Shown: piece by piece, positions 4,243-61,800 of the stretch
How the letters are laid out: each line of letters opens with the position of its first letter
Numbering within the stretch: the first letter of the stretch is position 1
Source of the DNA: Schmidtea polychroa
Lineage: Eukaryota
Assembly (NCBI GenBank): GCA_044892525.1
Contig: CM097885.1
Coordinates: 26,102,001 to 26,166,000 of the forward strand
Length of the DNA: 64,000 nucleotides
Direction of reading: 5' to 3'
Notes under the pieces: generated by a model
What the model was told of the DNA's origin: nothing
Databases searched by the model: none
Seen by the model: the letters and a program-made list of their open reading frames with translations, nothing else
Position numbers and translations under genes: made by a program

Positions 4243-5010
4243 TTGCGCATAATTTGGAAATTAGAAAAGCTGTGCAAAGATACGATGTATACCGTATATA
4301 TTCGCGTATATACACGAATGATGATATGTATATGTAAAAAAGCAAGTGACGGCAGAGTTTGGAAATACATGAATAAAAATTGTTTGAAATATAAAGCTAC
4401 TTGCTCCACTAGATTTGGAAGTTTCTTTTGTGACTCGCGTCTATCATTTGAGAACATTATTAGAACCTGTTTATAGATTTCCCAATGAAGAAAGAATACA
4501 AGGAGTATGCAGAGAATTATCGATCAGTAGAAGAAGTGTTGGGCAATTCTATGATATATTTCGTGCAAAATGTTCACTTTTTAATTAATTAAATCCAATA
4601 AAATTGTGAGTAGAAAATATAGTGTGTGAAATCGATGAAAGTCTTTTTGTCATAAGCCTAAATATCATAGGGGAAGTTTGGATTTTCGGTATAGTTTTAG
4701 ACCAGCAAGAGGTTTTATGACGATTGTACCAAACAGAACTGCAAATATACATATACGCAAAGTGTGTTTAACCGACATTATTATTTACAGTGACCAATGG
4801 AAAGCCTACATTTCAATTTATTCTTCCCTCATTTTTACGCATTATACAGTGAACCATTCAGTCAAATTTGTAAATCGAATGACGGGCGTGCATACACAGC
4901 ACGTAGAATAATATTGGAATAAAAATTAACCGCGGTGTAAAAACATGAAGCAAAAACAAACATAAATAATAATTTGAAGAATTTATGTGGCGATATAAAT
5001 TAGTTGGCGA
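4243..5010 (+). pseudogene. Merlin (IS1595/ISXO2-like) transposase remnant
   Basis: Frameshifted pieces: TRFGSFF; VEIDESLF (~4623-4650); KYHRG; IIYSDQWKAY; HYTVNHSVKFVNRMTGVHTQHVE. These match the D-D-E motifs of ISXO2-like transposases. Confidence 0.85.
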
Positions 5011-8100: not shown

Positions 8101-9374
8101 ATGCAATATTCTTAAATATGATTTTAATGAAGTTTTAAAATTGTCTCGTTTAGATCTGTGGGGCAATTTCATTTTTAGGGGGGGGGGGGCTATGGGATAT
8201 TTTTTTGGTTTTAAGGGGCTATTTCAAAATTAGTTATTAATAGATATTTAATACAATAAATATAAATACAATATCGTAAAAATAAATGAAATATTAAAAG
8301 CCAGTTAAACTATAATTTTGAAATTCAAGATCAATTATGATCCGGATTTCAGAATAGAGGCCTTTAGTTTTAATTTGTTAGTTTTATTTCCGTTATTTTG
8401 GATAAAATATTATATCGAAAAAAATGACAGTAGACAATATGTTATTAATGCAATTATAAAAATTACTCCGTATGGTATGATTATTTGAAGTTTTGTGTAA
8501 TAGATCGGTTTGAAAATTAGTTGCTATTGAAGGAAAAATAGTAACATGATAATGGCATTTTCCTGCAACACAGTAACTCTTCAAAAGATATTTATTTCCT
8601 ACTAGAAATACGTAACTAATATTTCCAGTATTGTTAAATCAAATACTTTTCATTAGGTTTGAATCACTATCATTTCCAAACGATACCGATTTTAGAAATT
8701 GTCCACTGTAAACGTTAATTTCAGAAAAAATAAATTGAAAATTATTCATCGAATTTGATCGATGGTTTTCATCAAACTTTTCAACTAAATAAACTATGAA
8801 TAAATTACAGGCAGATGTAAAAATTCTCATTTAGAATTAATATGTTTTTAAAAGAATAAAAAATCTTTTCCGTGAAGTTAATAACTGTTTAAAATATCAA
8901 AGTTTAAAATCTTTCATGTGCATTTTTCATAAGTTGATTCGAATACGAAAGTTACCTTTAATCTGTCCAATTGTAAAATTGAATAACAACTAAAAACATG
9001 ATGAAAATTGTAAGTATTTAAACTAATTGGAATTCAGATAATACATTTCATCATGAGATACTTTAGCGAGAATGATCGTGATTAGGATTTCTTTCCCAGT
9101 CAGTCAAAATTCAAGAGGTAATTCGTTATTTTGAATATGCACAAAATTTAATAAGCAAATGTACATAAAAGTGTTATTTTCTATTCATATTTTACCAAAC
9201 AAAAAATTTATAAAATTCAATATAAAATTTATTATGATAAAAGACGAAGGCTAGATCTTTACGAAATTAAGATTAAGACGTTTAATATACAAAGAGAAAG
9301 TTAAATTAATGCAACTATTTAGAGGTATCATCAAGAAGCATTCAAATATATATTAAAATTCAATGTTATAAATA

Positions 9375-9447
9375 TAATTATAAGATAACGCCAATCAAAC
9401 ATTCTTTTCACGATATATTTCGACAGTTTTCCTGCCATCATCAGGTT
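9375..9447 (-). ncRNA. Minimal type I hammerhead ribozyme in a Penelope-like 3' end (left copy)
   Basis: Minus strand reads aac-CUGAUGA-u-ggcag-gaaaa-cuguc-GAAA-uaua-UC-gug. Core intact, stem II 5 bp, stem I weak. 70/72 identical to 14303-14374. Confidence 0.75.
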
Positions 9448-10826
9448 TATTATAAATCCTAATTCTATTTATTAAAAATCCTAAGGATTGTTGGGCTAAA
9501 CTTCGAGAGTGATGAAAATCTGGTTGAGAACGAATAAATAGGATAAAATAAATTTTCAATAAAATCACGAGAAATATAGGAATAACTAAATCAGATAACA
9601 ATATAAAAGAAACAAGGATAACTAATAAAACAATAGAATGCATAAGGCGACAGATAAGGTAAAATTACCCAACACACATGATAGGAAAAGGAAAAACATA
9701 AATTAATAAAACGTAAGAAATAAACGAGAAAGTTAAGAAAATAAAATAGAAATCCTCAAATTAATAGGCTAATTAAAACAAAAATTATATTATGATAAAA
9801 TAACAATAAAGTCACAAGAAAAACAGAAGGAAAAAATAATAGAAAATAGGAAAATAAATAAAATAATAATAGAAATAAGAAAAAGGCATTAAAATCTAAC
9901 ATAGTATAATAAAAAACACATAAATAATAATAAATAATAATATTACAAACAAGGCGCGTCCTGATTGGACGAAAAATAGTATATAAGGAATATGGAAAAT
10001 CTGTAGAGTACCACTTTTAATCGCTACTCTACAGGTAAAAATTTTATTGTTTTATACTACCACTTTTAATCGCTACTCTACAGAACTATATTCAAGCACC
10101 CTTACAGGACTAGATAGCAGCATATTAAGCATTATTTTAACGACAATTCGACGAAATCTACTACAGGAGTCTAACTGAACCAAAGGAAACTCGATTCAAG
10201 TTGACAATCCGAACTTTTACAATTTTCAACACTCTCGAAGGAACTATTTGGTAAGTTATGGTGATTGATTTGAATGTTTCTATGCTTTTGATATAAAAGG
10301 AATGACAAGATGAAATATTTTATTCTAATAAAATTTTTGATTTCGAAAGATGTTGCTCTCTCTCTATGGTGCTGGCGACGATGTCGCCTGGGAATCCAAT
10401 ATGATGCGGGAAATTCAAATGAATCTGTAGAAGCGACTACGAGAATGGCTATTAGAAGCGATATTGAGAATCTGGATAAAATCAGTATTGCAACAGATCG
10501 AAATGGGTAAACGCTTGCGAGTGTCATGGGACGGCATCATATTCGAGACTCAGACGGCGTGGTCGCCAGACAAGTAATTTTTCATATAATAAATAAGTTC
10601 ACAACGAATATATCCATTTATTTAATTATATCATTCAACTCTATAATAATTTTCATGAACATTTATGAGAAATGATTGAGGAGATAGAATCGTCCCTCCT
10701 GGCGGTCTAAGGGCGGTGGCAGCGATGATTGCCGCTCTTAGGTGGGTCAGGAGGGGTGAGGACATCCGAGGCATGACAGTTATTTTGCACGGAGGGGATT
10801 GTCCACCGAGTGATGATCGGTCGATT

Positions 10827-11450
10827 TCACACAGTATTTTCTTGGAATGATAAGAACCCGACGGGATACAGTAAATCCAACGGCTGAGAATCCCAGAAAG
10901 TCTGCACATTTCGAAATTTTGACGAAATGACTAAGTCTCTCTCCGAAAATTTCTTCTTTGCCGCAGTGAGGATTGGTAAATCGCAGGTATGAACGATGGC
11001 GAGCAGCATTTACCTGTAGAAATCCACGGGATTCAGCTGAGATTTTTGTCCGAATTTAGATTCGTTTAGGATGAACATCGCTAAGACGTTAGCGGATAAA
11101 CATCCCATCTCGACTTTACTCTGAGTGTAGTAGACGTGGAAATCCAGCTTATCAGGCCTTTATCGTCAATAACTGTCGAATCTAGACGAAACCTGAAAAT
11201 TTCTCGATAACCAATGTAAACATTCACTTTAGCTTTGACGAAAACTCGATGACGGCCAGTTGGTAAGATTTATCTGGCGATTTGACTCTCTTTTGAAAAG
11301 ATGGTGACAGATTGATAAGGAGGCCTTCTGAAAACCCTCAGCGAATAGATTAGAAAGCCACGACCACTTTATAAATCCATTCGTCGACGATTAGTTGTGG
11401 CAGATAGGGCCAATCGAGCGATAATGAGGAAGTTAAAGGCTAGCCGATCA
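10827..11450 (-). pseudogene. Orphan ORF-A of cassette copy 1
   Basis: FRFRLDSTVI...GCLSANVLAMFILNE...CDLPILTAAK...VQTFWDSQPL aligns by eye with LTFGVDSKLVI...GCLLPNYKMILIDE...YDFAIPTIDK...VYSILWGVFPL at 42.4-42.8 kb; internal stops. Confidence 0.55.
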
Positions 11451-12224
11451 TTATAGAGATAATTCCCAAAAATTAAAAATATCGACATTACAATTCCTAG
11501 TGTATAATTTTCTTTTGACTAAAACTCCATCGATAATATGGAGTGCGGATAAATCCGACGATACACACTTACGAGTCGGTCAGTGACAGAGTAGGATATG
11601 AGCTGTGACATAATTTATACACACACGCAGACTACATGTGCCTGATTGAGTAATGTCGTAGTAGAGAAGCAGAAGTAGAAATTCATAAAATCATTATGAC
11701 AAAACACACCCTATAATCGGTCTTCACATAACTAGAGTAAATCCCCATAGGCATACACAATAGCGTGGTAACCGTTGACATGGAGATAGAGTCAGGGATT
11801 TCCATGACTACCCTCATACTCCGATTTAAATTAAATTTTAGATAATTACATAATAAAATTAACGAGATATTAAAGTTCCTTAAAAACCTTTTCTTTATAA
11901 GAGAAAATGCGTTAAATAATACCCATCGTTTCCTAGGAAAATGACATTCTAAGCTTCTACCTTGTCGATCGAATTCATTGCATTTTAGCTACTATGAAAA
12001 ATAAGACGAATAATGTTAATATTAGGTATGAAATAAAATACGCGTCTCCCGAATTGGAAAACCATTGGGATAAAACCGTTAATGATAAAAATGATGTTGA
12101 ATGTTGGCCATTGCTATGGATATTGCTGAGTGGAATGATTGACGGTGTGACTGCATTCGTGTTTGAATTTGTAGACTTCGCGTAAATAAACTTATTGATT
12201 ATTACATGTCTTCTGAAATTCTAG

Positions 12225-12983
12225 ATGTCTTCAAAATCCAACCCGACCAAAGAACTTCGTCCGTGTTTTTCTTGCGCAGACAAGAGCGCGGATATTGCCC
12301 AACTGCATCTATATATTGGGGCTCTAAAGAAGCGCATTGACCTCTATGAGGGCACGTGGTTCTCCCCGCCACAAATGAAGGAGGAGCGAAAGAAAATCCT
12401 CCGTTTGGAGCATTGCAGGGATAGCCTGCTGGAGGAGAGCCGTTGTCAACGGCTGACAATTAAAGCGCAATCCGAAGCCCTCCACAAGGTCTACACGGAG
12501 GCAGAATTGGCCAACCGAGTTCGGGAATTTCCCGTCATAGACAGCACTAATGTTTTTCCACTGCACCACCAGACGTCGCAAGCATCTGCATCAAACTGTC
12601 AAGGGCACGGCTCTTATCTGCCGCCCATTCCAGCTCCGGTATTATCCGGTTATCAGCCCTTAGTAGGTGGTTCTTCCGACCCTATCTTAGCTCCAGTGTT
12701 GGTGGCACCCTCCGCCGCATCCATCGCGAATAACCAAATGCCTTCACGCAAAAAGAAACGGCCAACCAGGGCCGCTAAGAATCAGAAACGCCGAGATGCG
12801 ATGGCAGCACTGGAAGCTTCGTTATCAGTGGCCCAGTCCACCCTCAAAGAGATTTCGAGTTCCCATGTGATTCCGGCCAAAGAAATATTTCGAATCGTAC
12901 CGGCCGATGGCATTAAATACCTCGCAGACCGTCGCTTGCCAGTGGACATTGACGAAGTGTTCGCCGACGGAGAGGTCTTTTAG
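12225..12983 (+). CDS. Orphan ORF1, 252 aa: CxxC motif, predicted coiled-coil, Pro/Ser linker, basic NLS-like RKKKRPTR
   Basis: Open 252-codon GC-rich ORF. First ~115 aa are about 55-60% identical (manual count) to ORF 41265-41609(-). Confidence 0.8.
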   Translation: MSSKSNPTKELRPCFSCADKSADIAQLHLYIGALKKRIDLYEGTWFSPPQMKEERKKILRLEHCRDSLLEESRCQRLTIKAQSEALHKVYTEAELANRVREFPVIDSTNVFPLHHQTSQASASNCQGHGSYLPPIPAPVLSGYQPLVGGSSDPILAPVLVAPSAASIANNQMPSRKKKRPTRAAKNQKRRDAMAALEASLSVAQSTLKEISSSHVIPAKEIFRIVPADGIKYLADRRLPVDIDEVFADGEVF

Positions 12984-13050
12984 CGACTTAAGGTGACGAC
13001 AGTGTTGGTCCACCTTGTTGAATGTTTTTTCGCGACCACCTCTCTAGAAC

Positions 13051-13480
13051 ATGACAACTTCTCATTTTAATTTTTGTGATGGTGTATTAGATTTTGGTGA
13101 AACCTTTGTTGTTCGGTAAATACTGTGTGTCGTATCATTAATATAACTATTTGATATTTAATGAATTGTTTTACGAGGTCGATGAGTGAAATACCCGATT
13201 CGATTGATGAACTAAAAGCATGGCATTGTATGAAGGTCGTCCTCTTGGACCAGGGTCGACCCGAGAATGTATGGGATTGCGGGTAAGTCCTTCTAAGGCA
13301 CCTTAGAACCTGTACCGTGAGGGGGTTAACAGTAATCCTAAGGCAGGGGCTCACCTATTAACCAACTCCAACCCGTGTGGGCAGGACCAACGTGGAAAAA
13401 TCGCCACGGGCTCACATGAGGGAATATTAACGAAGTCATGTGATGTATGCTGGGATAAGTCTGAGTCCAATGCATGGGAT
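13051..13480 (+). pseudogene. Orphan ORF2 of cassette copy 1 (probably spliced)
   Basis: LLDQG, NSNPKAGAHLLTNSN, REY and WDKSESN pieces match HLDQR, RSSPNTGAHLLTGSD, GREY and WEESNQS in ORF 40391-40651(-). Putative gtaaat...acgag intron at ~13117-13178. Confidence 0.6.
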
Positions 13481-13519
13481 CGCATGTCTGACTAAGGAAA
13501 GTTTCTTCTTCCCTTCATA

Positions 13520-40390: not shown

Positions 40391-40790
40391 TTATGGCACT
40401 AAAATTGCTGTTGGGTACCTGTACGATTGATTCGACTCTTCCCAGACACCCAAGGTGATTTGTCGACAATATTCCCTCCCGTGTACCCATGACAACGAAT
40501 CATGATGGTGATGTACACCGAGGTCGGAACCTGTGAGCAGGTGAGCCCCTGTGTTAGGACTACTCCTCACAGCATTCGCGGTTCGGGTTCTAGAACGCCA
40601 TGAAAGCGATAATTGCCTCTGGTCCAAGTGAGGTCTTTGGAGTTTCTTCACATTTTTACGATACGGTCTTAGAACAATTAACTAAATACTTAAATATCAA
40701 CGAGACAACGTTTCATATTCAAACATTTATTGTATCTAACACAATTCCCGTGTGCAAAAAATATATATAACAAATTGGCACCATTATACA
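40391..40790 (-). pseudogene. Orphan ORF2 of cassette copy 2
   Basis: The 86-aa open part (40391-40651) is homologous to 13.2-13.5 kb. Confidence 0.6.
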
Positions 40791-40881
40791 CTATCACGAT
40801 TAGTACACCAAAGGATTTACAATACACATTTATCATGAAGGATTGATTTCAAGTCAAGTGCTTTGGGTGGAGTCCTTGTAT

Positions 40882-41609
40882 TTAGATGTCTCCTTCCAGC
40901 AACATTGCAGTGATGTCGTTTTCCAGCACAGGATCGGAAGTTGGTAGAGACTCAGTAGCTGGCACGATTTTGAACGAAGAAACTGGACATTTTGGAGGAA
41001 TTATTTTTGCCTGAGATATTGCGAACCGGGTTGGTTCTAAAGTAGGTTTTTGGTTTTCTCTGCGCGGGTCAGACGCTTCTTTCTTTTTGTTTTCTGAGGT
41101 TCCGTCTGGACTACCCCCTGAGGAATAGAAGGGTCCACAGAGTTTACGGTTGATGTCGGGGGTGTATGTATCCCCGTTATCATGACGTCCGATGTGACTG
41201 GCGACATGACGGTTGGGCCATTGGAGTTACATCGCGCTGAGTCAGTCGGCTCTAGATGATCTGGTCAATGATGTAGAGGAAATATATTCCCTTTATCCAA
41301 GGTACGATATTCTGCGATACGAGATTTCAGTTCGGCCTCAGAATAGATGCGGTGGAGAGCCGCAGATTGGACCTTGATGGTGAGCCGTTGGCTCCTACTT
41401 TCCTCAAGAAAACTGTCACGGCAGTGCTCGAGTCTGAGGATTTTCATTTGGACCTTCATTAAGGCTGGGGTATACCAGGTGCCTTCTAGAGTGTCAATCT
41501 TTCGCTTCAACGTTCCAATATAATCGGCAGACTTCTTCAGGAGTACATATTTGTCAGCACACGAGAAGCACGGTCTCGGGCCAGTTGAAGGGAGATTCGG
41601 TTTTGACAT
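40882..41609 (-). pseudogene. Orphan ORF1 of cassette copy 2
   Basis: 114 aa open, then TGA. Read-through gives KTKRKKRLTRAEK (cf. RKKKRPTRAAK), and after a frameshift SFKIVPA...DITAMLLEGDI* (cf. IFRIVPA...DIDEVFADGEVF*). Confidence 0.8.
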
Positions 41610-42256
41610 TTTGCTCGAAAAACTGGAAATGCAAAGTGGTTAAATTACCCAGAAAAGGCAGTTAAATTTCAACAGGGCCCAGTCCCTTCCCCCCGGATCT
41701 ATTTACCACTGTAAATGTTAATAATATTATCTTTTTAAATGTTATCCAAAATTGGGTAGACAGGGGCAGAGTTACGATCAAGAAAATTATTCAGTGTACT
41801 CCTATCCTATAATCAAATAAAAAATATATAAATTCGTTATTTTAAAATTAATTATTAAGTTCATTTTCCTTAACTATGCTATTTAGAATTTTTTAAGAAT
41901 TCCTTATTTATTTTATCTGTGAAAAATTCGTTGTTCAAACTAACTTGGTGAAATTTATTGCCTGAATTTGTTTGAATCTCTTCGTTCAAACATGTCACCT
42001 AAGTTTGCCCATAAAAAAATTTCATTTGCCGCGATTCTCTCAATTTAAACGATTGGCCGCTGATACATTGGTTTTAGTGGAAATTTTCACTGTGCGAGAA
42101 ATACTAGCGAATTAATTTACCATCCAGTGTGTGTAATGTGATACTAACGTATACGCGCATATCATTCCCTTTATTACATCATCGAATAATTAACATCAGT
42201 TCTCGTTTTCTAGTGTTACTGCTATTCACTCACTAAATTGCAAAGACAAAATCGTT

Positions 42257-42789
42257 ATGTTCACCAAAGGTGTATTTTCGCCGAAAGAAGAGCGGGGGAT
42301 GTTCACCTGTCATCTTCGCCGGCGGAATGGTCTTGTTGACGCGTGTAAGTTTACGTTAGTTTCACCGAATTTGTGCCATGTTGTAGAATTCCTACTACCT
42401 AGGGTAATTATTTCTAACAATTTATGTAAATTGGATAATCTATTTTCTCTCAGGCATCACCCATTTCTATTGACATTTGGTGTTGATTCCAAATTGGTGA
42501 TTGTGATCTGTCCTCGCTGACTCGGGTAAAAGCCTATCATTGCTTTATCACGATTTCTCGTTACCATCTATCTACATGAATTCCCGCTGGATGTTTACTG
42601 CCTAATTATAAAATGATTCTTATCGACGAACAAGATCGGAATTTTTCAGTGTTTACAGCGGGGATATACGATTTTGCAATACCGACTATCGACAAGTTGG
42701 CGATTAAAACCTCTAAAAATACAAATCAGAGAAGTAGAAAATTGGATTTAAGGGTCTACTCTATTCTGTGGGGGGTGTTTCCCCTGTAA
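42257..42789 (+). pseudogene. Orphan ORF-A of cassette copy 2 (possibly spliced)
   Basis: Peptide blocks match 10827-11450(-); putative intron gtaatt...ctctcag at ~42404-42453. Confidence 0.55.
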
Positions 42790-44875
42790 GATAAATGGTT
42801 TGAACGAAAATCAAGTCCTCTTCTACTCTACTACAAGACAGGATTCGATTCTCCAAGGCCACACCTCTATGCTCCAAAATTCTCGCTGGGTCATCATTCT
42901 CCTAATCGACTTTCCTCATTCCTACTCTACTCAATAAAATCATTCTTGCATCCCTACTATTGATACTCCCCACCTATTTCTAATTTATTTCCAATTGATC
43001 CGAACGACTCTAGTTGTCGATTGGCTAAATATTCGCTCATGCTTCCTCTCTTCGGATTGTAGCCAGGTCGAATGATTAAACTCATGAATTTTTAATGGGT
43101 ACCATTCCTCATAGTTCCACTAGTTTTAATCATTTTTTCTCATTTTTATTCTTTTCTTATGTTTTTATTATTTTTAACGATTTTATTAATAACTAATTTT
43201 CCTATTCTTATTTTCCTTTCTTTTCTTGATTTTTGTGGTTTTTTCTCGTATTTTCTATCTTGTTTGTTTTTCCTTAATTATAATTTCTATTTTTTGGGTA
43301 TGATATTATTTTTTAATTTTCTCGTTATTTCTTTCTTTTATTATTATTTTTCTATTATTTTTCTTTCTTGGGTAATTATTTCGGGTTCTTTTTATTGGTT
43401 TTTCTGTTCTTTTTATTTCGGATTATCGGTTTTTTCTTTCACTTTTTATCCATCCTTTTAATTTGGCTGATTCCCTCTTAACTTAATTCTTAATTAATTA
43501 TTTTACATAGTGTTTTAGACTCATTGAGTCTTCAGCCCAACATTGCCAATAAAATAATCAAAAACAGAAATAAGAAAATTCTAGAATAAAAAGAATTCGA
43601 GTTTGTTTTAATGCATCAATACATACACGTGTACTTGCCACACAAAAATAGGTATATATACCAAAGCATTTCAGTCACAAAATTGCCAAATTTATTTTTT
43701 GTTCGAACATTCTATTTGAAGATCTTAGAAATCAGTAGTAAGCCTGTGTATGATTTTATATATGTATTTTAATGATAACCTTTCATTTCATTATATTTCA
43801 TGCTAACTTCTAACTTTTATTGTTTTCGTAAGTGTTCAGAGACACATTGATTTATCTGCGACTCTGCTCAGTCATGCGTTCAACCATATCTTAAATGAAT
43901 TCTAGTTATTTCACATGTAGACACGCATTATCCTTATTATAAATATTTTTGTTTGGTCATCGGAGGTCGTCCACTTCATGGTTCGTTTATAAAACAATGT
44001 TCTGAAATAATATATGTAATTGAATTTAGTATCTTGCATTTTGCTATTCAGTGTATAAAGAAATCAACCGTGCCAAATTTATCTATTATTCTAACAAAAT
44101 ATCAAAAAATATCAAATTTCAAAAAGACAATTTCTGCTTTTCTACAAATCTGTTAAAATGGTTAATGGGAGAAGTATTAATTCACTCCAAAAGATTCCTT
44201 TCCTACGAATTGCAAAATTTATTTCCAGATTTATCAAATACAGACAATCAATTAAAATTAATTTCATTAGATTTTCCCGGTGAAAATATCCAACTACAAG
44301 GAAAGATGAAACAAATTAATGTAATGATATTTGAAGATACAGAGAAAAACTTATTCAAGAGATTCTACAGACGATTGCACACGTGTTTGAAGTACTTTTA
44401 GAATTAGGAAGATTTTTAGATTATCACCATATTCAAAATCTAGTTTTTCTTGGACAACGCATGATTATACAATCTAATAGGTTTTCAATATACATCTCCT
44501 TAAATGAATTACAACATGTACACATTTTCCATCAAAGTTTAGCAGGCATTCTAAATGATATCACAGATATGATAACAAATATCTTGGAATTTGACGGGGG
44601 TCTACTAAAATAATTTTATTAAATCAACAATAAATCGTAGAATTTAATAAATATTACGAAATTTCCAAAATTTACATTTAATTTTATTACATACAATCAT
44701 CTAATTGGTTTATATTCAAAATTATATTTCCATTAATTACGTAGCTATTTTTAGATGTTTTTCTGACGTTGGTCTTGAATTATACTTCGACGGATATGAA
44801 GATTCATAATTTCGAATCATTGAATTGCTTGTATATATAAATACTTTTCAATTATTCAAAAATTTGACTAGCTAC

Positions 44876-46362: not shown

Positions 46363-47300
46363 AAAAAAAAATTCGTCCTCGAAATATGTGATGCTTATTT
46401 AATTTAAAATTCAAATATATTATCATATTTTCTGAAAATTAAGTGACATATTGACATATCGACAATTCAGTCCCATTCGAGTCTTGTTCATTTTATTAAA
46501 ATTCAACATTTTTCCTTATGTTTAAAAATCTAATTTTAATTTATTTGTGAATTTTCTCATTTGAACAGTTTCTTAAATTTTCAATTAAGTGTTTCATAGC
46601 ATTTTATTTTCAAAGTTAAATATTTACTTTATTTATTTTTAATTTATTTACGTTCAATAATAAATTAAATTTCATCCAATAGAATAATTCTAAAATGTCA
46701 AAGACATAAAAATATCGAAATTGTAATTTAATTTTCAATTTAAACGCTATCATGAAAAATTTTAAGGTTTTAACTAATTTTCTTTATTGAATAGCTAAAA
46801 TAATTCTTCACAATTTCTAAAGATTTTTTTTATAATAAATACTTAGCATAAGCAGCTAAAAAATACCATTCTGGCTTTTTCAATTCTAAATTAAACTAAA
46901 CTCACATAAAATATTATTTATTATTCTTTTATTTCTCAGTGGGAATTTATAATGGACAATCCAATAATTATTATTTGTATGCTTTATCGGTGTTACTTGG
47001 CATATGAATATCTAATATTATGGATTATATCAAAATAGCAATTAACTGTTTCTATGGGGTATTTATCTAACAAATTATCCCAATTATTTAATGGCAAATA
47101 ATTACTTCCTAAATTTGATAACGATACTTTTATAAATAGGATTTTAAAAGCTGAAAAATTTACTGATAGTTTGAAATTTCGTTAGTTTTTTATAAATTTT
47201 AAATACAATAACTTATAATATAACTTATTATTCATGAATTTAGAATATTTTAAAAATTTAAGTAATATTAAATATAATATTTTTTTTTATTTTTGATTCA

Positions 47301-47960
47301 ATGTTAGCAATATATGTGTTATTTGTAATTGTGGCGGTTTGTGATATTTCCTGTAAATCGGTGGAAAAAATCCAAGTTTTTCCAGGAGCTTATATTGATG
47401 CAAACGAATATTATGCAGGAAGAGCGGGAAAGTTTTTCCACGATGGTTGTAATTTTTGCACTTGTAGTTTCAGACCAGATACTCATCCAGGTGCAGCTTA
47501 TACAGGAATTACGTCATTTATTTAGTTCAGATAATATTTAATAGATGTTTGTGAATCAAAGAGTTGAAACTAAATTTTGTACTCTGGATTTGGAATTATT
47601 GTCATTGTTGTTCCTTTTTGTCAGCTGAGCCCAGTTTCCTTTTCTAGGCAGGAGCATGTGTAACGCCAAATATGGGTCTGTCTTAACGCAAATTCTACAG
47701 AAATGATATTTGATGATGGCTGCGGAAGATAATGCAGGTAAAGAACTTTATTTCGGTATAGAAATGTATAATTATTCTTTTAATGTATCAAAAAAAGTCG
47801 AGGCACTTGGTCAGCCGCTTGTCCCCCACGTTGCTGTGATCCCAATACCTTTATCAGACACACAAAAACAGAGATGATCCTACTGAACACCGCAGAAAAG
47901 CTGTCAACAAAGCTGACGATTTGTTGGAAAAATTATCTCGAAAATAATCTAATGCCTTGC
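47301..47960 (+). pseudogene. Spliced secreted cysteine-rich protein, pacifastin/VWC-like, decayed
   Basis: Signal-peptide-like MLAIYVLFVIVAVC; FHDGCNFCTC...GAAYT; second repeat FDDGCGRxCR|CIKKSRGTWSAACPPRCC; splice donor at ~47738; stop codon. Confidence 0.5.
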
Positions 47961-52784: not shown

Positions 52785-54497
52785 ATTGTTCACTGCTTGA
52801 TGTTGTAACTGGTAGTGTAGCAAATATTTTAAGTAATTTTCGAACAGTTGGGAAAATTGAATCGTCGTATGCTAAAAATGCATTATGAGCATTTTTTGGT
52901 GTATTCGAAGAATTTAAAACATGGCGCCACCATAGCTTCAGCTCACCAATGCTACAGTTTGTAATACTATTATATTTTTCTAAAAGGATTTTTGCAGAAT
53001 TTTCATGCTCTGATGAAAAGTTTTGTTCATTTGGCAAAAGACACATAAAACTTTGCAATATATTTTTATGTTTCAGAAACCGATCGTGAATTTGCATCTT
53101 TGTAGAATCCACAAAAGGAATGAAGATGGCAATACCATAATACTCTTCAGGATTTTCAACTACAATATTGCAGCGATGAACTTGTCTTCCGGTTAGACGA
53201 GGAATTCGTCACATCTTTTCTTGACGTCACTGAAAATGGTATTATATTGCTTTTCTATTTCGCTTCGTGTTTCATCTAGCACCTCTTCAACATTTTCTGC
53301 CAGTCCAATTGCAGCGGCCAGATCAAGATTTATTGGTTGTAGTAACCGACTTAGCGGTAGGATTATAGCAAAAACCTTGGCAAGAACATGAAGCGATACT
53401 TGAAATTCTGTACTCCTAATAACAGATAGAAGCTGAATTGCAGAAGAAGTTGTTTTTGTCATCCCATTCAGAAATAATTTCCATTGCAGAAATTGCAGCT
53501 TTTTGAAGCTCCATAAATACTAGGACGGACTCGTGGCGTTGAATCCATCGTGTGGGACATATTTGTTTTATTCGCGTTGCTGTTGATTCAGATTCCATTT
53601 GGTCTATACAATTTTTTAGCACGGCTTGGCGCTTGGGGTGTTAAAAAAAACTTCCGAGTGATCCTATACAATTTCGTATAAATGAAATTTCACAAGCATC
53701 AGAAATAGCGAGGTTTAAACTATGAGATGCACAGTGTACATATAAAGCTAGCTTATTTCCATCACTAACATAATTTTGTGCCCCATGAAATCGTCCACTC
53801 ATTGCTGAAGCTCCATCATAACCCTGTCCAATCATGAATTTTGAATCTATTTCTAGATTACGAATAGTCTGCATTAAAACCTTTGCAAGACCCTTACCAG
53901 TCACATCAGTAACAAGTACAAACTGTAAAAAATCTTCTCTGATGTTATTCGAATCAGAATCTACACAACGAAAGCATAATGAAAATTGTTCAATTGTTCA
54001 AATTGACCAAAGGAACAGGAGCAACCTGATCAGCTGTTCTTTCTAAATCACTTGTTTTAGATTTTTTAACAAAATAATTTGTTAAAGTAGAATTTTTTAA
54101 TTTTATTTTCTCGTTATTCATCTTCACAAAATATTATTTAGAATTAACAAATTTTAAAATTAACATTAAACAAAAATTAGACTTTCTCAACAGAAAACAA
54201 ATTTTAAAATGAACAGTAAGAACAGTAAGACTTTCAAGTTCAAGAGAAAACAAGAAACAAAGTAAATTGAACAAAGCAACACTACTCGTGTGAATTTTTT
54301 TTAAAAAATTTCGCCGAATTTTTTTTAAAAAAACGTTTGAAAATTTAAAAAAGCGGCTGTTTGGGTCCTGCAATTATTATTATTAGTAATAGAAGGTACA
54401 TTTATATATTTATTAATTATTGTTTTTTATATTGTTGTTGGAATCATGGGAGAGTTTAAACCCTCAGTACCCCCCCCCCCCCCTGCGTACGCGCATG
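52785..54497 (-). mobile_element. hAT remnant (ZMYM1-like transposase) with intact 5' terminus
   Basis: MIGQGYDGASAMSG; LYVHCASHSLNL; CPTRWIQRHESV; LLKIFATLPVTTSSSEQS. Terminus catgcgcgtacgcagggg at 54497. Confidence 0.9.
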
Positions 54498-55047: not shown

Positions 55048-58000
55048 TAACACCATAAATTTAATGGCGTTGATATCTTTATATGCCCGATATGTGAAAC
55101 TTACCATAACCAACCCTATTCTGATTTCTTTCTTCAACATAAGGATCATCTTAGCAATTTTAAAATTACTAAAAAAGAGCTCTTTGAGTCCATTTATAAA
55201 GCTAATGATTTTAAAATTAATAAAAGAAAGGCTGATATTGGTATAACTTACGGAGTGACAAAATTATTAAAACCTGAGATTATTATAATTAGTGATGACG
55301 ACGATGATATTCAAATAGGTGGTTCTGTTAATATAGGTAATGAACCAATTGTAGAATCAGATTTAAGAGGAACTCGTAGGGTATTAAAATTTGATATTGA
55401 CGAATTTAATGTTAATCAAATTACTTTAACTGATAGGATAGTTACAAGACTTTTATCTGAAATAAATAAAATGGGTAGTGTAAAAGTTCAATTTGTAGTT
55501 AAAATTCAGTTTGAAAAAGATGAGTTTTTATCGAATAATGCTGATGTTTTCTCTGATAATTTTCTTGTTGAAGGAATTAGGAAATTAAATGAAAAAATTG
55601 AAAGATTTAGTGAATTAGGAAGTGGTTGGACTATAATTAAAATTAGGGAAATTGGTCATGGATTTATTAAAACTCCTCTTAAACTTAAAGGAAAGAGAGC
55701 AATTATTAATATTAAGAACAGTGACGATCTTTGTTTCATATATAGTATCTTAGCTTTATTGAAACATGACAACCTTACAAGTAATCGTAGTAATATGTAT
55801 AGTTACACTAACTTTCTTGGTGAATTAAATTATGAAGAGATAGATGATTACCCTATGAGACTGTGCAATATTCGTAGGTTTGAGGAAAAGAATCCAGATC
55901 TTGCCATTAATGTATTGTCTTATAATGATTGTCTTAATAATGATGATGATAATGAAAATGATGATTTTGTTCCTCTTCATCCTCATTTGGATATCATTCA
56001 TCGTACTGAAGTGACTGGTGTTGATCCATTATATCTTTTACTCCTCGAAAATGATGGCCAATATCATTATACTGCTGTTATTAATTTACAACGCTTAATG
56101 AATTCCCATACTGATGATATAGTTAGTGTAAGAATTCAATCTCAATGGTGTCCTAGATGTCTTAATGGTTTTCCTTCACAGGAAGCTTTTGACAGTCATT
56201 ATGCATTATGTATTAAAAATCAGGTAGGAACGACTTTATACACTCTTCTTCAAAATAAATATTTAGAATTTGATGATTTCTCGAAAACAGTAACACCACC
56301 ATTTGTAATTTACGCTGACATTGAGTCAATTTTACCCAGTGACATAAGATATCACCAAAAGCATCTACCAATATCAGCTGGACTATTATTAGTTAATAAT
56401 TTTAATAATACTAAATCCTATCATAGTTTTATTGGTTCAAATTGTGTCTTTGAATTTTTGAGTAAGATTGAGGAAATTGCTGACACAATAATCCTACCGT
56501 ATTTTGACATTCATGGTAATACTCCAATGTCTACTTTATCGTTTAATGAAGAACGAAATTTTAGGACTTGCTTGAATTGTTATCTTTGCAAGAAACCTAT
56601 TAGAAATCGAACGAGAGATCACGATCACTTTTCTGGTCGTTATCTCGGTGCAGCCTGTCGTTTCTGTAATCTTTCTAGGAGAATTCGTAAACATTTACCC
56701 GTTATCTTTCATAACTTGTGGGGGTACGACCTTCATCACATTTTGAAATATGGTCTTAGTAGTTTTCCTTCTTGGGATTTAAATATAATTCCAACTACCA
56801 CGGAAAGATTTATATCATTGATAGCACATATTAATAAATTATCAGTTAGGTTTATTGATAGTTATCAATTCATTAGCGCATCATTAGATAATGCAGTAAA
56901 AACTCTTTCGAACTTTCCTCTGACTGAATCTGTATTCACTGGTTCAATAATGGATTGTAAAGGTATTTTTCCTTTTAATTTAAAACCTCTGATGATACAA
57001 AATTGTTATATTGTTATATTGATATTAACAATCTGTATGGTTGGGCTCTTAGCCAAAGTCTTCCTTTCGGTGATTTTAGTTCGGTAATTAATAATCTTGA
57101 ATCGGTTTTGGATGTGTATGATTACAAATATTGAAATGCTTCCATATGGTTACACTATGGAAGTTGATATCGATATTCCTGAAAGTATACATGAGTTTTT
57201 GGATAATTTCCCAGTGGCACCTGAAAAGATGTGTCCACCGGATTCGAAAGTTGAGAAGTTGATGCTCACGCATTATCCGAAGTAGAACTATGTTCTTCAT
57301 TGGAGACTTCTCAAAATGTTTGTTTCTCTTGGTGTTAAGATTGTTAAGATACATAGAGCTATAAGGTTTAAGCAGGCAATGATCTTTAAAGAGTACATCG
57401 ATACAAACACTTCTCTGAGAGCTGATTCAACCAATAATCTAGATAAGAACTACTTTAAGCTTTTAAATAATAGTCTTTATGGAAAATCAGTGGAAAATCT
57501 TAAAAAACGGATGAATTTGAGATTATGTAATTCTGCTGAAAAATTGATTACATATTCTTCAAAGCTGTCTTTTAGAAAGTGTATCAAAATTGATGACAAT
57601 CTGATTGCAGCACATCTGAATAAAGATTTGATTTGTTTAGATAGACCTAGTTATATAGGTCAAACAGTTCTAGATCTATCGAAACTAAGGATGTATCAGC
57701 TTCAGTATCTTGAATTAGCTAAATATCGAAATCAATTCAATTGTAAGATTGACATTGTTGCTGGTGACACTGACTCTTTCTTCCTTGAAATTATACTTCT
57801 ACCTGCAATGATTTCAGATAATCTTTTGGATACTTCAAATTATGACTCTAACCATCCATTGTATTCAAGAAATCTTGACTCAGTAATAGGTAAATTCAAA
57901 GATGAGAGTAAGGGACTTGGATATAAAGAATGGGTTTTCTTGAGACCAAAATGCTATAGTCTTTTAGGTGAAACTGAAAGTAATAAAGCAAAAGGAATTA

Positions 58001-58326
58001 CTTTGAAAGGAACAGAAATAAAACATCTTTCTTATCTTGACTGTTATGAGAACAATAAAATCTTTTCTGTTCCTCAAACTCGAATAGTAACTCGAAATAA
58101 TAAGTTGTTTACGTTTAAGAATTGTAAAATTGCGTTAGGTAACATCGATGATAAACGGCACTGGGTTGGTAAAAATAAAAGTTTTGCATACGGGTATAAT
58201 TTAGATGTCAACCAAGATGATGTAAACCAAGATGATGTCAACTATGAAGATGATCCAGAATTGATCGAGATTTTATTTAAAATAAATTTTTGTATTTTGA
58301 AAACTGTCTTTTTATTATTTAATTAA
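55048..58326 (+). pseudogene. Polinton/adintovirus-type protein-primed DNA polymerase B
   Basis: PFVIYADIES; RDHDHFSGRYLGAAC; FHNLWGYD; RFIDSYQF; KGIFP; YIDINNLYGWALSQSLP (shifted frame ~57015); KLLNNSLYGK; VAGDTDS; GKFKDE; KAKGI; DDKR. Frameshifts, stops and an apparent internal deletion after KGIFP. Confidence 0.93.
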
Positions 58327-60612: not shown

Positions 60613-61154
60613 ATGTATATTGAAATATAGAAAGTTGTTATGGAGTAAGTTGTTTTTTATACTGTTTAATTTATTAAAGTAGTTCTGTTCAGGTCAATAA
60701 AATCGGAAAACAGATATTGGGAAATGGATTTATAGTTGGTGTAAGAAATTTATTTTATTTTTGTATATTATTTTTAAAACATTTAGAGTTTAATGTGGAC
60801 TTAGATGACGAATCCAATAATGATTTTTTAAGTACGGGAAATGCTCTCACTTGTATTGAGGAGGTACCAAAGGAGAAATCAATTATGGAAAATGCCCTCA
60901 GTTCTAATGAGAATGATAATGTCCTCTCTAAGGATGATTCTGATTCCGACATGGAATCACAATGTAAGCATTTATTTATATATATATTTTTTTTAAATTT
61001 AAAAATTTTCTTAATCACTTTTTTAACATTTGCATAAAACTTTTAAAAATTTTTATGTTATTATGTTATTGAAATTATGAATATAATGAAGAAAATGATG
61101 ATGAAATTATGATGAAAATGAAGAAAATTATGAAAATGTTATGATGAAATTATT

Positions 61155-61800
61155 ATGACGAAAATGAAGAAAATTTTAATTAATGGAATCACCAGATTAA
61201 ATAATAAAATTTACATATTTAGGAAGCGGATGGGGGGGGTAGGTAAAATCAAAGAGATAGATTTTATCCTAACTAAATATACTCACATGAATAGGCTAGC
61301 TGGTCATAGTTATATCCCCACACCATCAGCATTAATTTCAAAAAGAGCTATTGTAAACGTCAAAAACAACGACGATATGTGCTTTATATATAGCATCTTA
61401 CATATAAATAGAAATCGTGTTAGAACATATGAAAATTATTTAGGTGAACTGAATTTTGACCCTATAAGTGATTATCCCATGAAATTATGTGATATCCCCA
61501 AATTCGAGAAGAAATTTGGCAATTAATGTTTTAACATATAGGAAAAAACCAGCTAAGCCTATAGAAAACGATGATAGCTTCTATATTCCCCATCATCCTC
61601 ATTTAGATATTATTCACCTCTCTAAAGTTACAGGCGGTGAACCCATTTACTTATAGAAAACGATGATAGCAACTATATTCCCCATCATCCTCATTTAGAT
61701 ATTCACCGCTCTAAAGTTATAGGTGGTGAACCCATTTACTTATTGTTATTAGAAGATGGTACCGAATTTCACTATACCGCAGTTTTTGATTTGCAAAAAT
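61155..61800 (+). pseudogene. Second, diverged pPolB N-terminal fragment
   Basis: SKRAIVNVKNNDDMCFIYSIL...YLGELNF...DYPMKLCDIPKFEKK...HPHLDIIH...LLLLEDG..FHYTAV parallels 55.7-56.1 kb; internal ~80-bp duplication. Confidence 0.85.

Follow-up and report, generated by a model that had tools for sequence, protein, structure and literature searches.

Two insertions, hereafter units 1 and 2, lie on opposite strands of the window, i.e., the whole 64-kb stretch of DNA that was analyzed (Table 1). Both begin with TGTTGGGCT (9489 on the + strand and 43542 on the − strand) and continue with a strand-biased A-rich tract (over the initial 500 nt, the A fraction is 0.52-0.59 in both units), as a sequence-only reading of this DNA had reported. 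That reading had placed both starts correctly, whereas its end of unit 2 at 39960 lies about 450 nt too far, the terminal CCCAACA being found at 40409; the end of unit 1 was set at 13527 by CCAACA. Each unit is flanked by an exact 4-bp target-site duplication (TSD), for which the window composition gives a chance of about 0.0027 per unit. Both units are real mobile insertions. The two insertion sites are unrelated, and one of the units sits within a Penelope-like element.

Table 1. Coordinates of the features of units 1 and 2 in the window
Feature	Position	Strand	Remarks
Unit 1, solo-LTR-like insertion	9489..13527	+	4039 bp, TGTTGG...CCAACA, 6-bp terminal inverted repeat
Unit 1 left TSD	9485..9488	+	GGAT
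Unit 1 right TSD	13528..13531	+	GGAT
Unit 1 A-rich strand-biased tract, start of putative U3	9489..9950 (end approximate)	+	A 0.52 and 0.59 in first two 250-nt bins
Unit 1 CCAAT-like and TATA-like boxes, then duplicated 31-nt repeat	9957..10083	+	from sequence
Unit 1 ORF1, intact	12225..12983	+	252 aa; acceptor-like TTCTAG immediately 5' of ATG
Unit 1 TATA-like box	13142..13146	+	385 nt from 3' end; motif list and DNA alignment
Unit 1 conserved 3' block (former ORF2)	13304..13484	+	alignment with unit 2
Unit 2, solo-LTR-like insertion	40409..43542	-	3134 bp, TGTTGGG...CCCAACA, 7-bp terminal inverted repeat
Unit 2 5' TSD	43543..43546	-	GCAA on - strand
Unit 2 3' TSD	40405..40408	-	GCAA on - strand
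Unit 2 A-rich tract	43100..43542 (end approximate)	-	A fraction 0.57, 0.56
Unit 2 ORF1, broken	40882..41609	-	acceptor-like TTTCCAG 13 nt upstream of ATG
Unit 2 conserved 3' block	40412..40592	-	

Anatomy of the two units

As the same reading had stated, RT, integrase and transposase are missing from the units: none of their 12 reading frames matched a Pfam family, gag-pol included, at E ≤ 0.05. In unit 1, the boxes downstream of the A-rich tract and the two copies of the 31-nt repeat (10004-10034 and 10053-10083, 94%) form a possible upstream promoter, to judge from their motifs; no counterpart of this region was seen in unit 2. The TATA-like box close to the 3' end of unit 1 aligns with a TATA-like stretch in unit 2, 360 nt before its 3' end, and is a candidate for the main LTR promoter. 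An AATAAA 3' of this box was found in unit 2 only.

The flanks of both units lacked a polypurine tract on the 5' side and, using the general pattern of a primer-binding site (PBS), a PBS-like sequence on the 3' side. Terminal inverted arms of at least 16 nt were absent from both units, so there is no long TIR; no pair of terminal direct repeats surrounds an internal region inside either unit, and no ORF1-bearing copies paired around gag-pol were present within the window. TG...CA ends with inverted repeats of 6-7 bp and exact 4-bp TSDs, with neither a long TIR nor a repeat pair inside, make up the solo-LTR pattern, and the two units are probably solo LTRs by origin. Assignment to a TIR DNA transposon (Ginger-like or MITE-like) was rejected on the missing arms of at least 16 nt, and assignment to a TRIM or LARD on the missing pair of own terminal direct repeats; the earlier suggestion of a new class of non-autonomous element is not supported, on the same two points.

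Alternatively, each unit could be an entire non-autonomous element, bounded by minimal inverted ends and mobilized at the DNA level by an enzyme supplied in trans, a Gypsy-like integrase or a transposase of Ginger or Polinton type; we regard this as quite unlikely. TGT...ACA ends with 4-bp TSDs are compatible with both routes, Polinton-like polymerase remnants occur in the window (DNA_pol_B_2, E = 8e-5) and no paired copy was seen there. However, the inverted repeats span just 6-7 bp with no longer arms, and the conserved non-coding sequence lies, LTR-like, at a single end behind a TATA-like box. Furthermore, the window contains a third repeat, preceded by a polypurine tract (1045 bp, 46350-45306 on the − strand), which resembles the units in its ends and its A-rich start, indicating that true LTRs of this genome look so.

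ORF1 and its database relatives

In unit 2, ORF1 is broken: an in-frame stop follows codon 114, and the reading frame shifts somewhere between about 41050 and 40975. The N-termini of the two copies are identical at 67 of 114 residues, in agreement with the earlier estimate of about 55-60%, and the alignment reaches 44% over 192 aa (E = 1.5e-38). Codon-position identity was 72, 81 and 37 of 114, and 39 of the 67 identical residues are encoded by different codons. With a pN of 0.29 and a saturated pS of 0.97, pN/pS was 0.30 (bootstrap 0.23-0.39). The substitution pattern indicates strong purifying selection on ORF1, as had been proposed.

The ORF1 protein combines a coiled coil, an arginine/lysine-rich patch and a C-terminal motif that is conserved. 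The coiled coil was seen in a monomer model, with predicted core helices at residues 15-42, 48-89 and 92-101 of the unit 1 protein; the basic patch follows at 175-189 (9 of 15 residues R/K in each window copy), then a helix at 182-212 and the C-terminal motif at 236-244. This motif is short and hydrophobic-acidic, in the style of protein-binding motifs, and may resemble SUMO-interacting motifs. No known fold or family was found for ORF1: there was no Pfam family match, and PDB sequences searched with the ORF1 profile gave a best E of 0.21. Using the structural model (pTM 0.29), Foldseek returned nothing at E ≤ 0.001 among viral structures (best 0.33) and no match in the PDB, and VIA-align in wide mode reached a best Z of 4.9 with generic coiled coils only; failed searches with a model of this quality do not establish a new fold. 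The best ESM Atlas values, 0.83 and 0.81, are leads only.

Fifteen database relatives of ORF1 were recovered, with 27-43% identity in the core and several subfamilies. A basic patch with at least 7 R/K in 15 residues was present in 10 of them, and ORF1 shares its C-terminal motif with P0014 and P0015 (0/1000 shuffles each). The coiled coil and the basic patch of the sequence-only reading are family features. Its CxxC was found in none of the 15 relatives (three do not have that stretch of sequence); being confined to the two window copies, it was rejected as a zinc site of the family. A single-sequence word search with ORF1 gave no match among 2280 candidates, and P0004 (a Salvia repeat protein), one of the 11 matches of one search, was a chance match left out before the family counts.

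In the database, the ORF1 relatives appear as portions of host proteins. This would fit a host multigene family of the ordinary kind, or an exon captured from the host that hitch-hikes without benefit to the element. We consider this highly improbable. Thirteen of the 15 relatives are fused to 13 different and unrelated host domain sets, a diversity that marks mis-predicted genes and not real architecture, and both window copies lie in TSD-flanked units at unrelated sites, one of them within the Penelope-like element. Such a pattern would arise when gene predictors pick up copies of a transposon gene dispersed through genomes. ORF1 accounts for false chimeric gene models (those 13 relatives), and its profile is a marker to find and classify such LTRs.

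The antisense region and the conserved 3' block

The sequence-only reading had described three conserved genes in divergent arrangement, ORF1 being accompanied by an antisense ORF-A and a sense ORF2. ORF-A, for which it had given no coordinates, was scanned for over the whole antisense region from the A-rich tract to ORF1. The best local score of 40 was reached by 71 of 100 shuffles, the frameshift-tolerant score of 40 by 11 of 30, and the windowed semi-global score of 27 was equalled in 142 of 150, so that a conserved ORF-A failed all three unbiased tests.

The region described as ORF2 is indeed a conserved block (117/178 nt identical between the units), but its coding nature is doubtful. Protein-level scores were alike on both strands (71 antisense vs. 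62 sense; shuffle mean 31-33), none of the five indels within 180 nt is a multiple of three, and none of 16 fetched proteins matched. The codon pattern was weak (45/60, 40/59 and 32/59; Fisher p = 0.018, with the frame picked post hoc). No unusual structure was found in the RNA of the block (z of −0.45 and −1.08 for the two units). On these sequence features, the block is probably a cis sequence of R/U5, and it could still be a decayed coding exon.

The three-gene, bidirectional cassette of the sequence-only reading would be favored by this weak codon pattern and by one hand-picked ORF-A frame pair, for which a single scoring scheme out of four gave p = 0.0015. The latter value reflected an overlap of non-collinear ends and was gone under the fair null (the 142 of 150 shuffles above), and the strand symmetry, the non-triplet indels and the missing protein matches speak against ORF2. 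Such a cassette is very unlikely: ORF1 stands, ORF-A does not, and ORF2 is doubtful and more likely non-coding.

Parent element and predicted role of ORF1

A remnant at 52789-50272 on the − strand carries a zinc knuckle (E = 6e-7), a ubiquitin-like (E = 0.023) and a Bcl-2-like (E = 0.004) match, the last two falling under the curated cut-offs of Pfam, in the domain order described for Burro, the giant Gypsy elements of planarians (PMC6431247). Burro has an internal region of up to 25 kb and a total length above 30 kb, from which LTRs of several kb follow, and the 4039 and 3134 bp of the units match this inferred size (PMC6431247). Compared by description, Burro/GYPSM1 resembles the units further in its accessory proteins and its AT-rich host; by contrast, its extra domains are located in the polyprotein or in an upstream internal accessory ORF, and the available part of the description mentions no LTR gene (PMC6431247). 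The A+T content of the window is about 70%, which, taken with the Burro-order remnant, may point to a planarian host; Rfam gave no match and no tRNA gene was found within it.

Both units are closed by TSDs, and the Burro-type remnant lies apart from both. The LTR nearest to this remnant is the 1045-bp repeat, whose 3' end is unrelated to units 1 and 2 (scores of 24 and 26, shuffle mean 23-24); that it belongs to another family counts against a Burro parentage of the units. Overall, the evidence leaves a Burro-type planarian giant Gypsy as parent evenly balanced.

We slightly favor, as the overall explanation, solo LTRs of a giant Gypsy whose U3 encodes ORF1, a nuclear regulator of its own element. 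A giant Ty3/Gypsy element would have integrated with a 4-bp duplication, after which recombination between its two LTRs would have deleted gag-pol and left a solo LTR. The promoter and R/U5 would occupy the last ~400 nt of the LTR, whose 3-4 kb would result from a U3 carrying ORF1. The ORF1 mRNA would be spliced, probably entering at the acceptor immediately upstream of the ATG; for this location in U3 with spliced expression we see an even chance. The protein would oligomerize by its coiled coil, enter the nucleus via the arginine/lysine-rich patch, bind nucleic acid and regulate the expression of its own element, in the manner of Rev/Rex/Tat-type or MMTV U3-encoded proteins. We propose only tentatively this role as nuclear nucleic-acid-binding regulator; RNA export, the single likeliest mechanism of its action, is itself unlikely. 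The LTR-type ends and TSDs, the selection on ORF1, its dispersed family of several subfamilies and the Burro-type remnant uphold the earlier idea of a giant LTR encoding its own accessory protein. Against this explanation counts that neither the 15 relatives, none of which is fused to RT or integrase, nor the window copies tie the units to gag-pol.

Where LTR retrotransposons carry extra genes, these have usually been reported from the internal region, and a selected gene within an LTR is a trait of complex retroviruses that is unusual in retrotransposons. MMTV is known to encode an ORF in U3: its sag/naf is a protein gene within the LTR with its own promoter or spliced RNA, as proposed for the units; unlike ORF1, which has no Pfam match, Sag is a superantigen, and MMTV is a vertebrate retrovirus (PMC9412291). 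Plant Ogre and Retrosat2/RIRE3 and the bdelloid ORF3 elements share Gypsy affiliation, long LTRs (over 3 kb in plants), extra ORFs of unknown or enzymatic nature and many solo LTRs, whereas their extra ORFs, in the available text, are internal (ORF0 upstream of gag-pol; ORF3) and not in the LTR (PMC6431247, PMC3485330, PMC5408684). The literature surveyed, mostly titles and abstract starts, describes no gene carried within an LTR of planarians or of Gypsy elements, and an earlier description is possible; the text-searchable supplement files of PMC11410931 gave no match.

Rev, Rex, Rem and Rec resemble ORF1 in being small and helical with an arginine-rich patch, ORF1 being likely nuclear and oligomeric as they are; ORF1 is larger, has a long coiled coil, and homology to them was found on the basic patch only (PMC3856414). 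Judged by sequence pattern alone, the two window copies and 10 of the 15 relatives have the arginine-rich motif of Rev/Rex type. Among 12 alignment members, a single one matched Pfam REV, within the basic patch (E = 7e-4; 19.1 bits for the whole record vs. a cut-off of 22). A conserved leucine-rich export signal was not found in the ORF1 family (motifs resembling one in 5 of 16 sequences vs. 4.3 expected by shuffling, at scattered positions), nor was a structured response element in the 3' block, the only part folded.

These two negative results would also fit an ORF1 that, within the same LTR anatomy, acts on the host, as an anti-silencing factor or as a coiled-coil interferer with chromatin or stem-cell proteins. 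The coiled coil is the best conserved part of the protein, the C-terminal motif resembles a protein-binding motif, and Burro carries host-manipulating cargo, namely BIR, BCL2-like, MATH and SUMO-like domains (PMC6431247), and its Burro1 IAP, according to a second-hand report, protects stem cells (PMC13465017). However, the arginine-rich patch in most relatives and both window copies fits nucleic-acid binding, and host action comes without an identified host partner; we regard it as unlikely, though worth weighing.

Returning to an ORF1 that regulates its own element, we speculate, with low confidence, that planarian giant Gypsy elements may be complex-retrovirus-like, with a conserved arginine-rich trans-regulator that is encoded in U3 and expressed by splicing, acts like Rev or Tat without being related to them in sequence, and controls the export or transcription of a genome-length RNA of ~30 kb. 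Solo LTRs would then scatter a promoter-plus-gene cassette through host introns, and intact copies such as 12225-12983 could act in trans. If the units are Burro-type LTRs, ORF1 is a testable candidate for the regulation or export of very long element RNAs, in an animal with reported effects of its giant elements on stem cells. Since solo LTRs retain the gene, ORF1 can persist and spread without gag-pol.

Insertion marks of the two units

Unit 1 and unit 2 bear integrase-type insertion marks. Each unit lies between identical 4-bp flanks, with a chance of about 0.0027 for each flank match as calculated from the window composition, and ends in terminal inverted repeats of 6 bp (unit 1) or 7 bp (unit 2). 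Using a repeat scan, we observed neither longer terminal arms nor a terminal direct-repeat pair within either unit. The flanks contained no purine tract upstream and no primer-binding-site-like sequence downstream of either unit. Recombination between LTRs would have left both as solo LTRs.

Unit 1 interrupts a Penelope-like element, with a weak GIY-YIG match 3' of the unit (Pfam E 0.071) and an inverted repeat on both sides (9372-9464 and 14285-14377). Within this repeat are hammerhead-like cores at 9444(-) and 14305(+); Rfam returned no match to them. At 10004-10083(+), unit 1 also contains a duplicated 31-nt repeat, directly 3' of CCAAT- and TATA-like boxes, whose second copy closes a GT...AG stretch of 49 nt, possibly a tiny intron. 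No such duplication was seen in unit 2.

Coordinates of the units and of other features in the window
Feature	Position	Strand	Description
Unit 1	9489-13527	+	4039 bp; TGTTGGGCT at 9489 to CCAACA at 13527; GGAT each side
Unit 2	43542-40409	-	3134 bp; 3' end CCCAACA at 40409; GCAA each side
ORF1, unit 1	12225-12983	+	intact frame, 252 aa
3' block, unit 1	13304-13484	+	
3' block, unit 2	40592-40412	-	
Penelope-like element hosting unit 1	9372-9464 and 13528-14377	- and +	weak GIY-YIG, inverted terminal repeats
LTR-like repeat	46350-45306	-	1045 bp; TGTTG...CCCAACA; A-rich start; internal 39-bp tandem repeat
Burro-order remnant	52789-50272	-	decayed frame: CCHC knuckle (E 6e-7), coiled region, ubiquitin-like (E 0.023), Bcl-2-like (E 0.004)
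hAT transposase	26670-29114	+	nearly intact; DUF4371 E 4e-14, Dimer_Tnp_hAT E 3e-5; one in-frame stop, 27540-27542
Polinton-like protein-primed polymerase remnants	55051-58326	+	DNA_pol_B_2 E 8e-5, endonuclease VII E 0.001
Related Polinton-like fragment	61134-61743	+	
ISXO2/Merlin-like transposase fragment	4639-4908	+	Pfam E 0.002
ISXO2/Merlin-like fragment	47300-47900	+	by eye; no Pfam match

Coding content of the units

The sequence-only reading had proposed three genes for both units, the antisense ORF-A and the sense ORF1 and ORF2, possibly defining a new class of element. ORF1 is a real shared gene and is under selection. In unit 2 its frame is interrupted by a stop that follows codon 114, and downstream of this the reading frame changes. 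Over these 114 aligned codons, 67 specify the same residue as in unit 1, and 72, 81 and 37 are identical at codon positions 1, 2 and 3, respectively; pN was 0.29 and pS 0.97 (saturated), giving a pN/pS of 0.30 (bootstrap range 0.23-0.39). An acceptor-like site is present at the ATG or 13 nt 5' of it in both window copies, and the same four residues precede the start methionine in three relatives, which suggests spliced expression of ORF1.

ORF-A was tested over the antisense region from the A-rich tract to ORF1, and its conservation was not supported: the best score was equalled by 71 of 100 shuffles in local alignment, by 11 of 30 with frameshifts allowed and, when a semi-global scan was run in windows, by 142 of 150. 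One hand-picked frame pair scored well under a single scheme out of four (p 0.0015) and was rejected, its alignment being a non-collinear end overlap.

As regards ORF2, the 3' block is conserved as DNA (117 of 178 nt identical). Its weak codon pattern (45/60, 40/59 and 32/59; p 0.018, with the frame picked post hoc) could betray a decayed exon, but the five non-triplet indels and an antisense score as good as the sense one argue against coding. TATA-like boxes are aligned just 5' of the block, 385 nt (unit 1) and 360 nt (unit 2) from the ends, and its folding was no better than that of shuffles (z -0.45 and -1.08). We read the block as a putative R/U5. The units are best read as a real giant LTR family with one gene rather than a new three-gene class.

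The ORF1 protein family

A word-based search with ORF1 gave no match. Using phmmer against 1.84 billion representatives, we obtained 11 matches at E<=0.001, 10 of them with the ORF1 core; P0004, a Salvia repeat protein, was left out as a chance match. Profile searches added five relatives (n=15). The family is dispersed. In the core, its members are 27-43% identical to the window copies, and the tree places the two window copies on a separate branch (100/100) next to several subfamilies. An unrelated host domain accompanies ORF1 in 13 of the 15 relatives, each with a different set (SNF, GDC-P, CRAL-TRIO, L21, subtilase, ABC, actin and tyrosine phosphatase in eight; PF04628/PF04099, PF12701/PF14438, PF00493 and others, PF01433/PF17900, and PF00023 and others in five). 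No reverse transcriptase, integrase or transposase occurs among the partners of these 13. Such varied fusions are the pattern of an intronic transposon gene spliced into gene models.

The AlphaFold2 model (12-sequence alignment, mean pLDDT 63.5, pTM 0.29) predicts helices at 15-42, 48-89 and 92-101, then a disordered linker and a helix at 182-212. Invariant core residues are W45, P48, E71, R73, Q75, R76, Q82, P112 and H115. ORF1 combines a predicted coiled coil with a basic patch, as first proposed; both window copies have the patch (at least 7 R/K per 15 residues) C-terminal to the core, and so do 10 of 15 relatives. The CxxC, also proposed, is missing from every relative covering that stretch. 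Two relatives, P0014 and P0015, share the C-terminal motif of residues 236-244 (0/1000 shuffles in each case); the resemblance is weaker in P0010 and P0016 (17/1000 and 14/1000). The subfamily of P0002 and P0003 ends in an IYIDL motif in place of the others' PVDIDE-type motif; both presumably resemble SUMO-interacting motifs.

Pfam, PDB sequence, three fold and two ESM Atlas searches gave no family assignment. Among 12 alignment members, one had a match to Pfam REV in its basic patch, the whole record falling below the REV cut-off, and export-signal-like motifs were at chance level (5 of 16 sequences, 4.3 expected). Although ORF1 may act similarly to Rev-type proteins (PMC3856414), it fails or cannot pass tests of Rev membership and is not to be classed as Rev-type. 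ORF1 would lie within an enlarged U3, the position of the MMTV ORF (PMC9412291), and would be translated from spliced RNA into a nuclear, oligomeric nucleic-acid binder regulating its own element. The main alternative is a protein acting on the host, for which a Burro1 IAP role, reported second-hand in PMC13465017, may speak.

Candidate parent and neighbouring elements

The domain order of the remnant, knuckle, ubiquitin-like and Bcl-2-like, is that of planarian Burro giant Gypsy elements, whose internal regions reach up to 25 kb and totals exceed 30 kb (PMC6431247). This order suggests a planarian host, with a Burro-type element as candidate parent of both units. A decayed hAT-like transposase occupies the remnant's upstream side (about 52790-54100, judged by eye), and the closest LTR is the 1045-bp repeat, unrelated to the units, as is its 3' end. 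This repeat looks like a 3' LTR because of its LTR-type ends, A-rich start, polypurine tract directly 5' of it and lack of a target-site duplication. It is an in-window model of local LTR appearance, but of another family.

Section 7 of the Burro account mentions no LTR-internal gene (PMC6431247). In the parts consulted of PMC11410931 (with supplements), PMC8532177, PMC3485330, PMC13238120, PMC5408684 and PMC7828637, extra retrotransposon ORFs are internal and the ORF1 gene is undescribed. Literature listings contained no account of such a gene; the LTR, perhaps also ORF1, may already be catalogued in Repbase or the key Burro papers.

Elsewhere in the window, a large foldback-like structure (17060-25022) has 807-bp arms (17933-18739 and 21664-20858, 99.75% identical), with a 212-bp satellite flanking it on each outer side. 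Because the structure contains assembly gaps, part of it may be artefactual. It encloses a RING-finger ORF at 18847-19398 (zf-C3HC4_3 E 1.7e-9).
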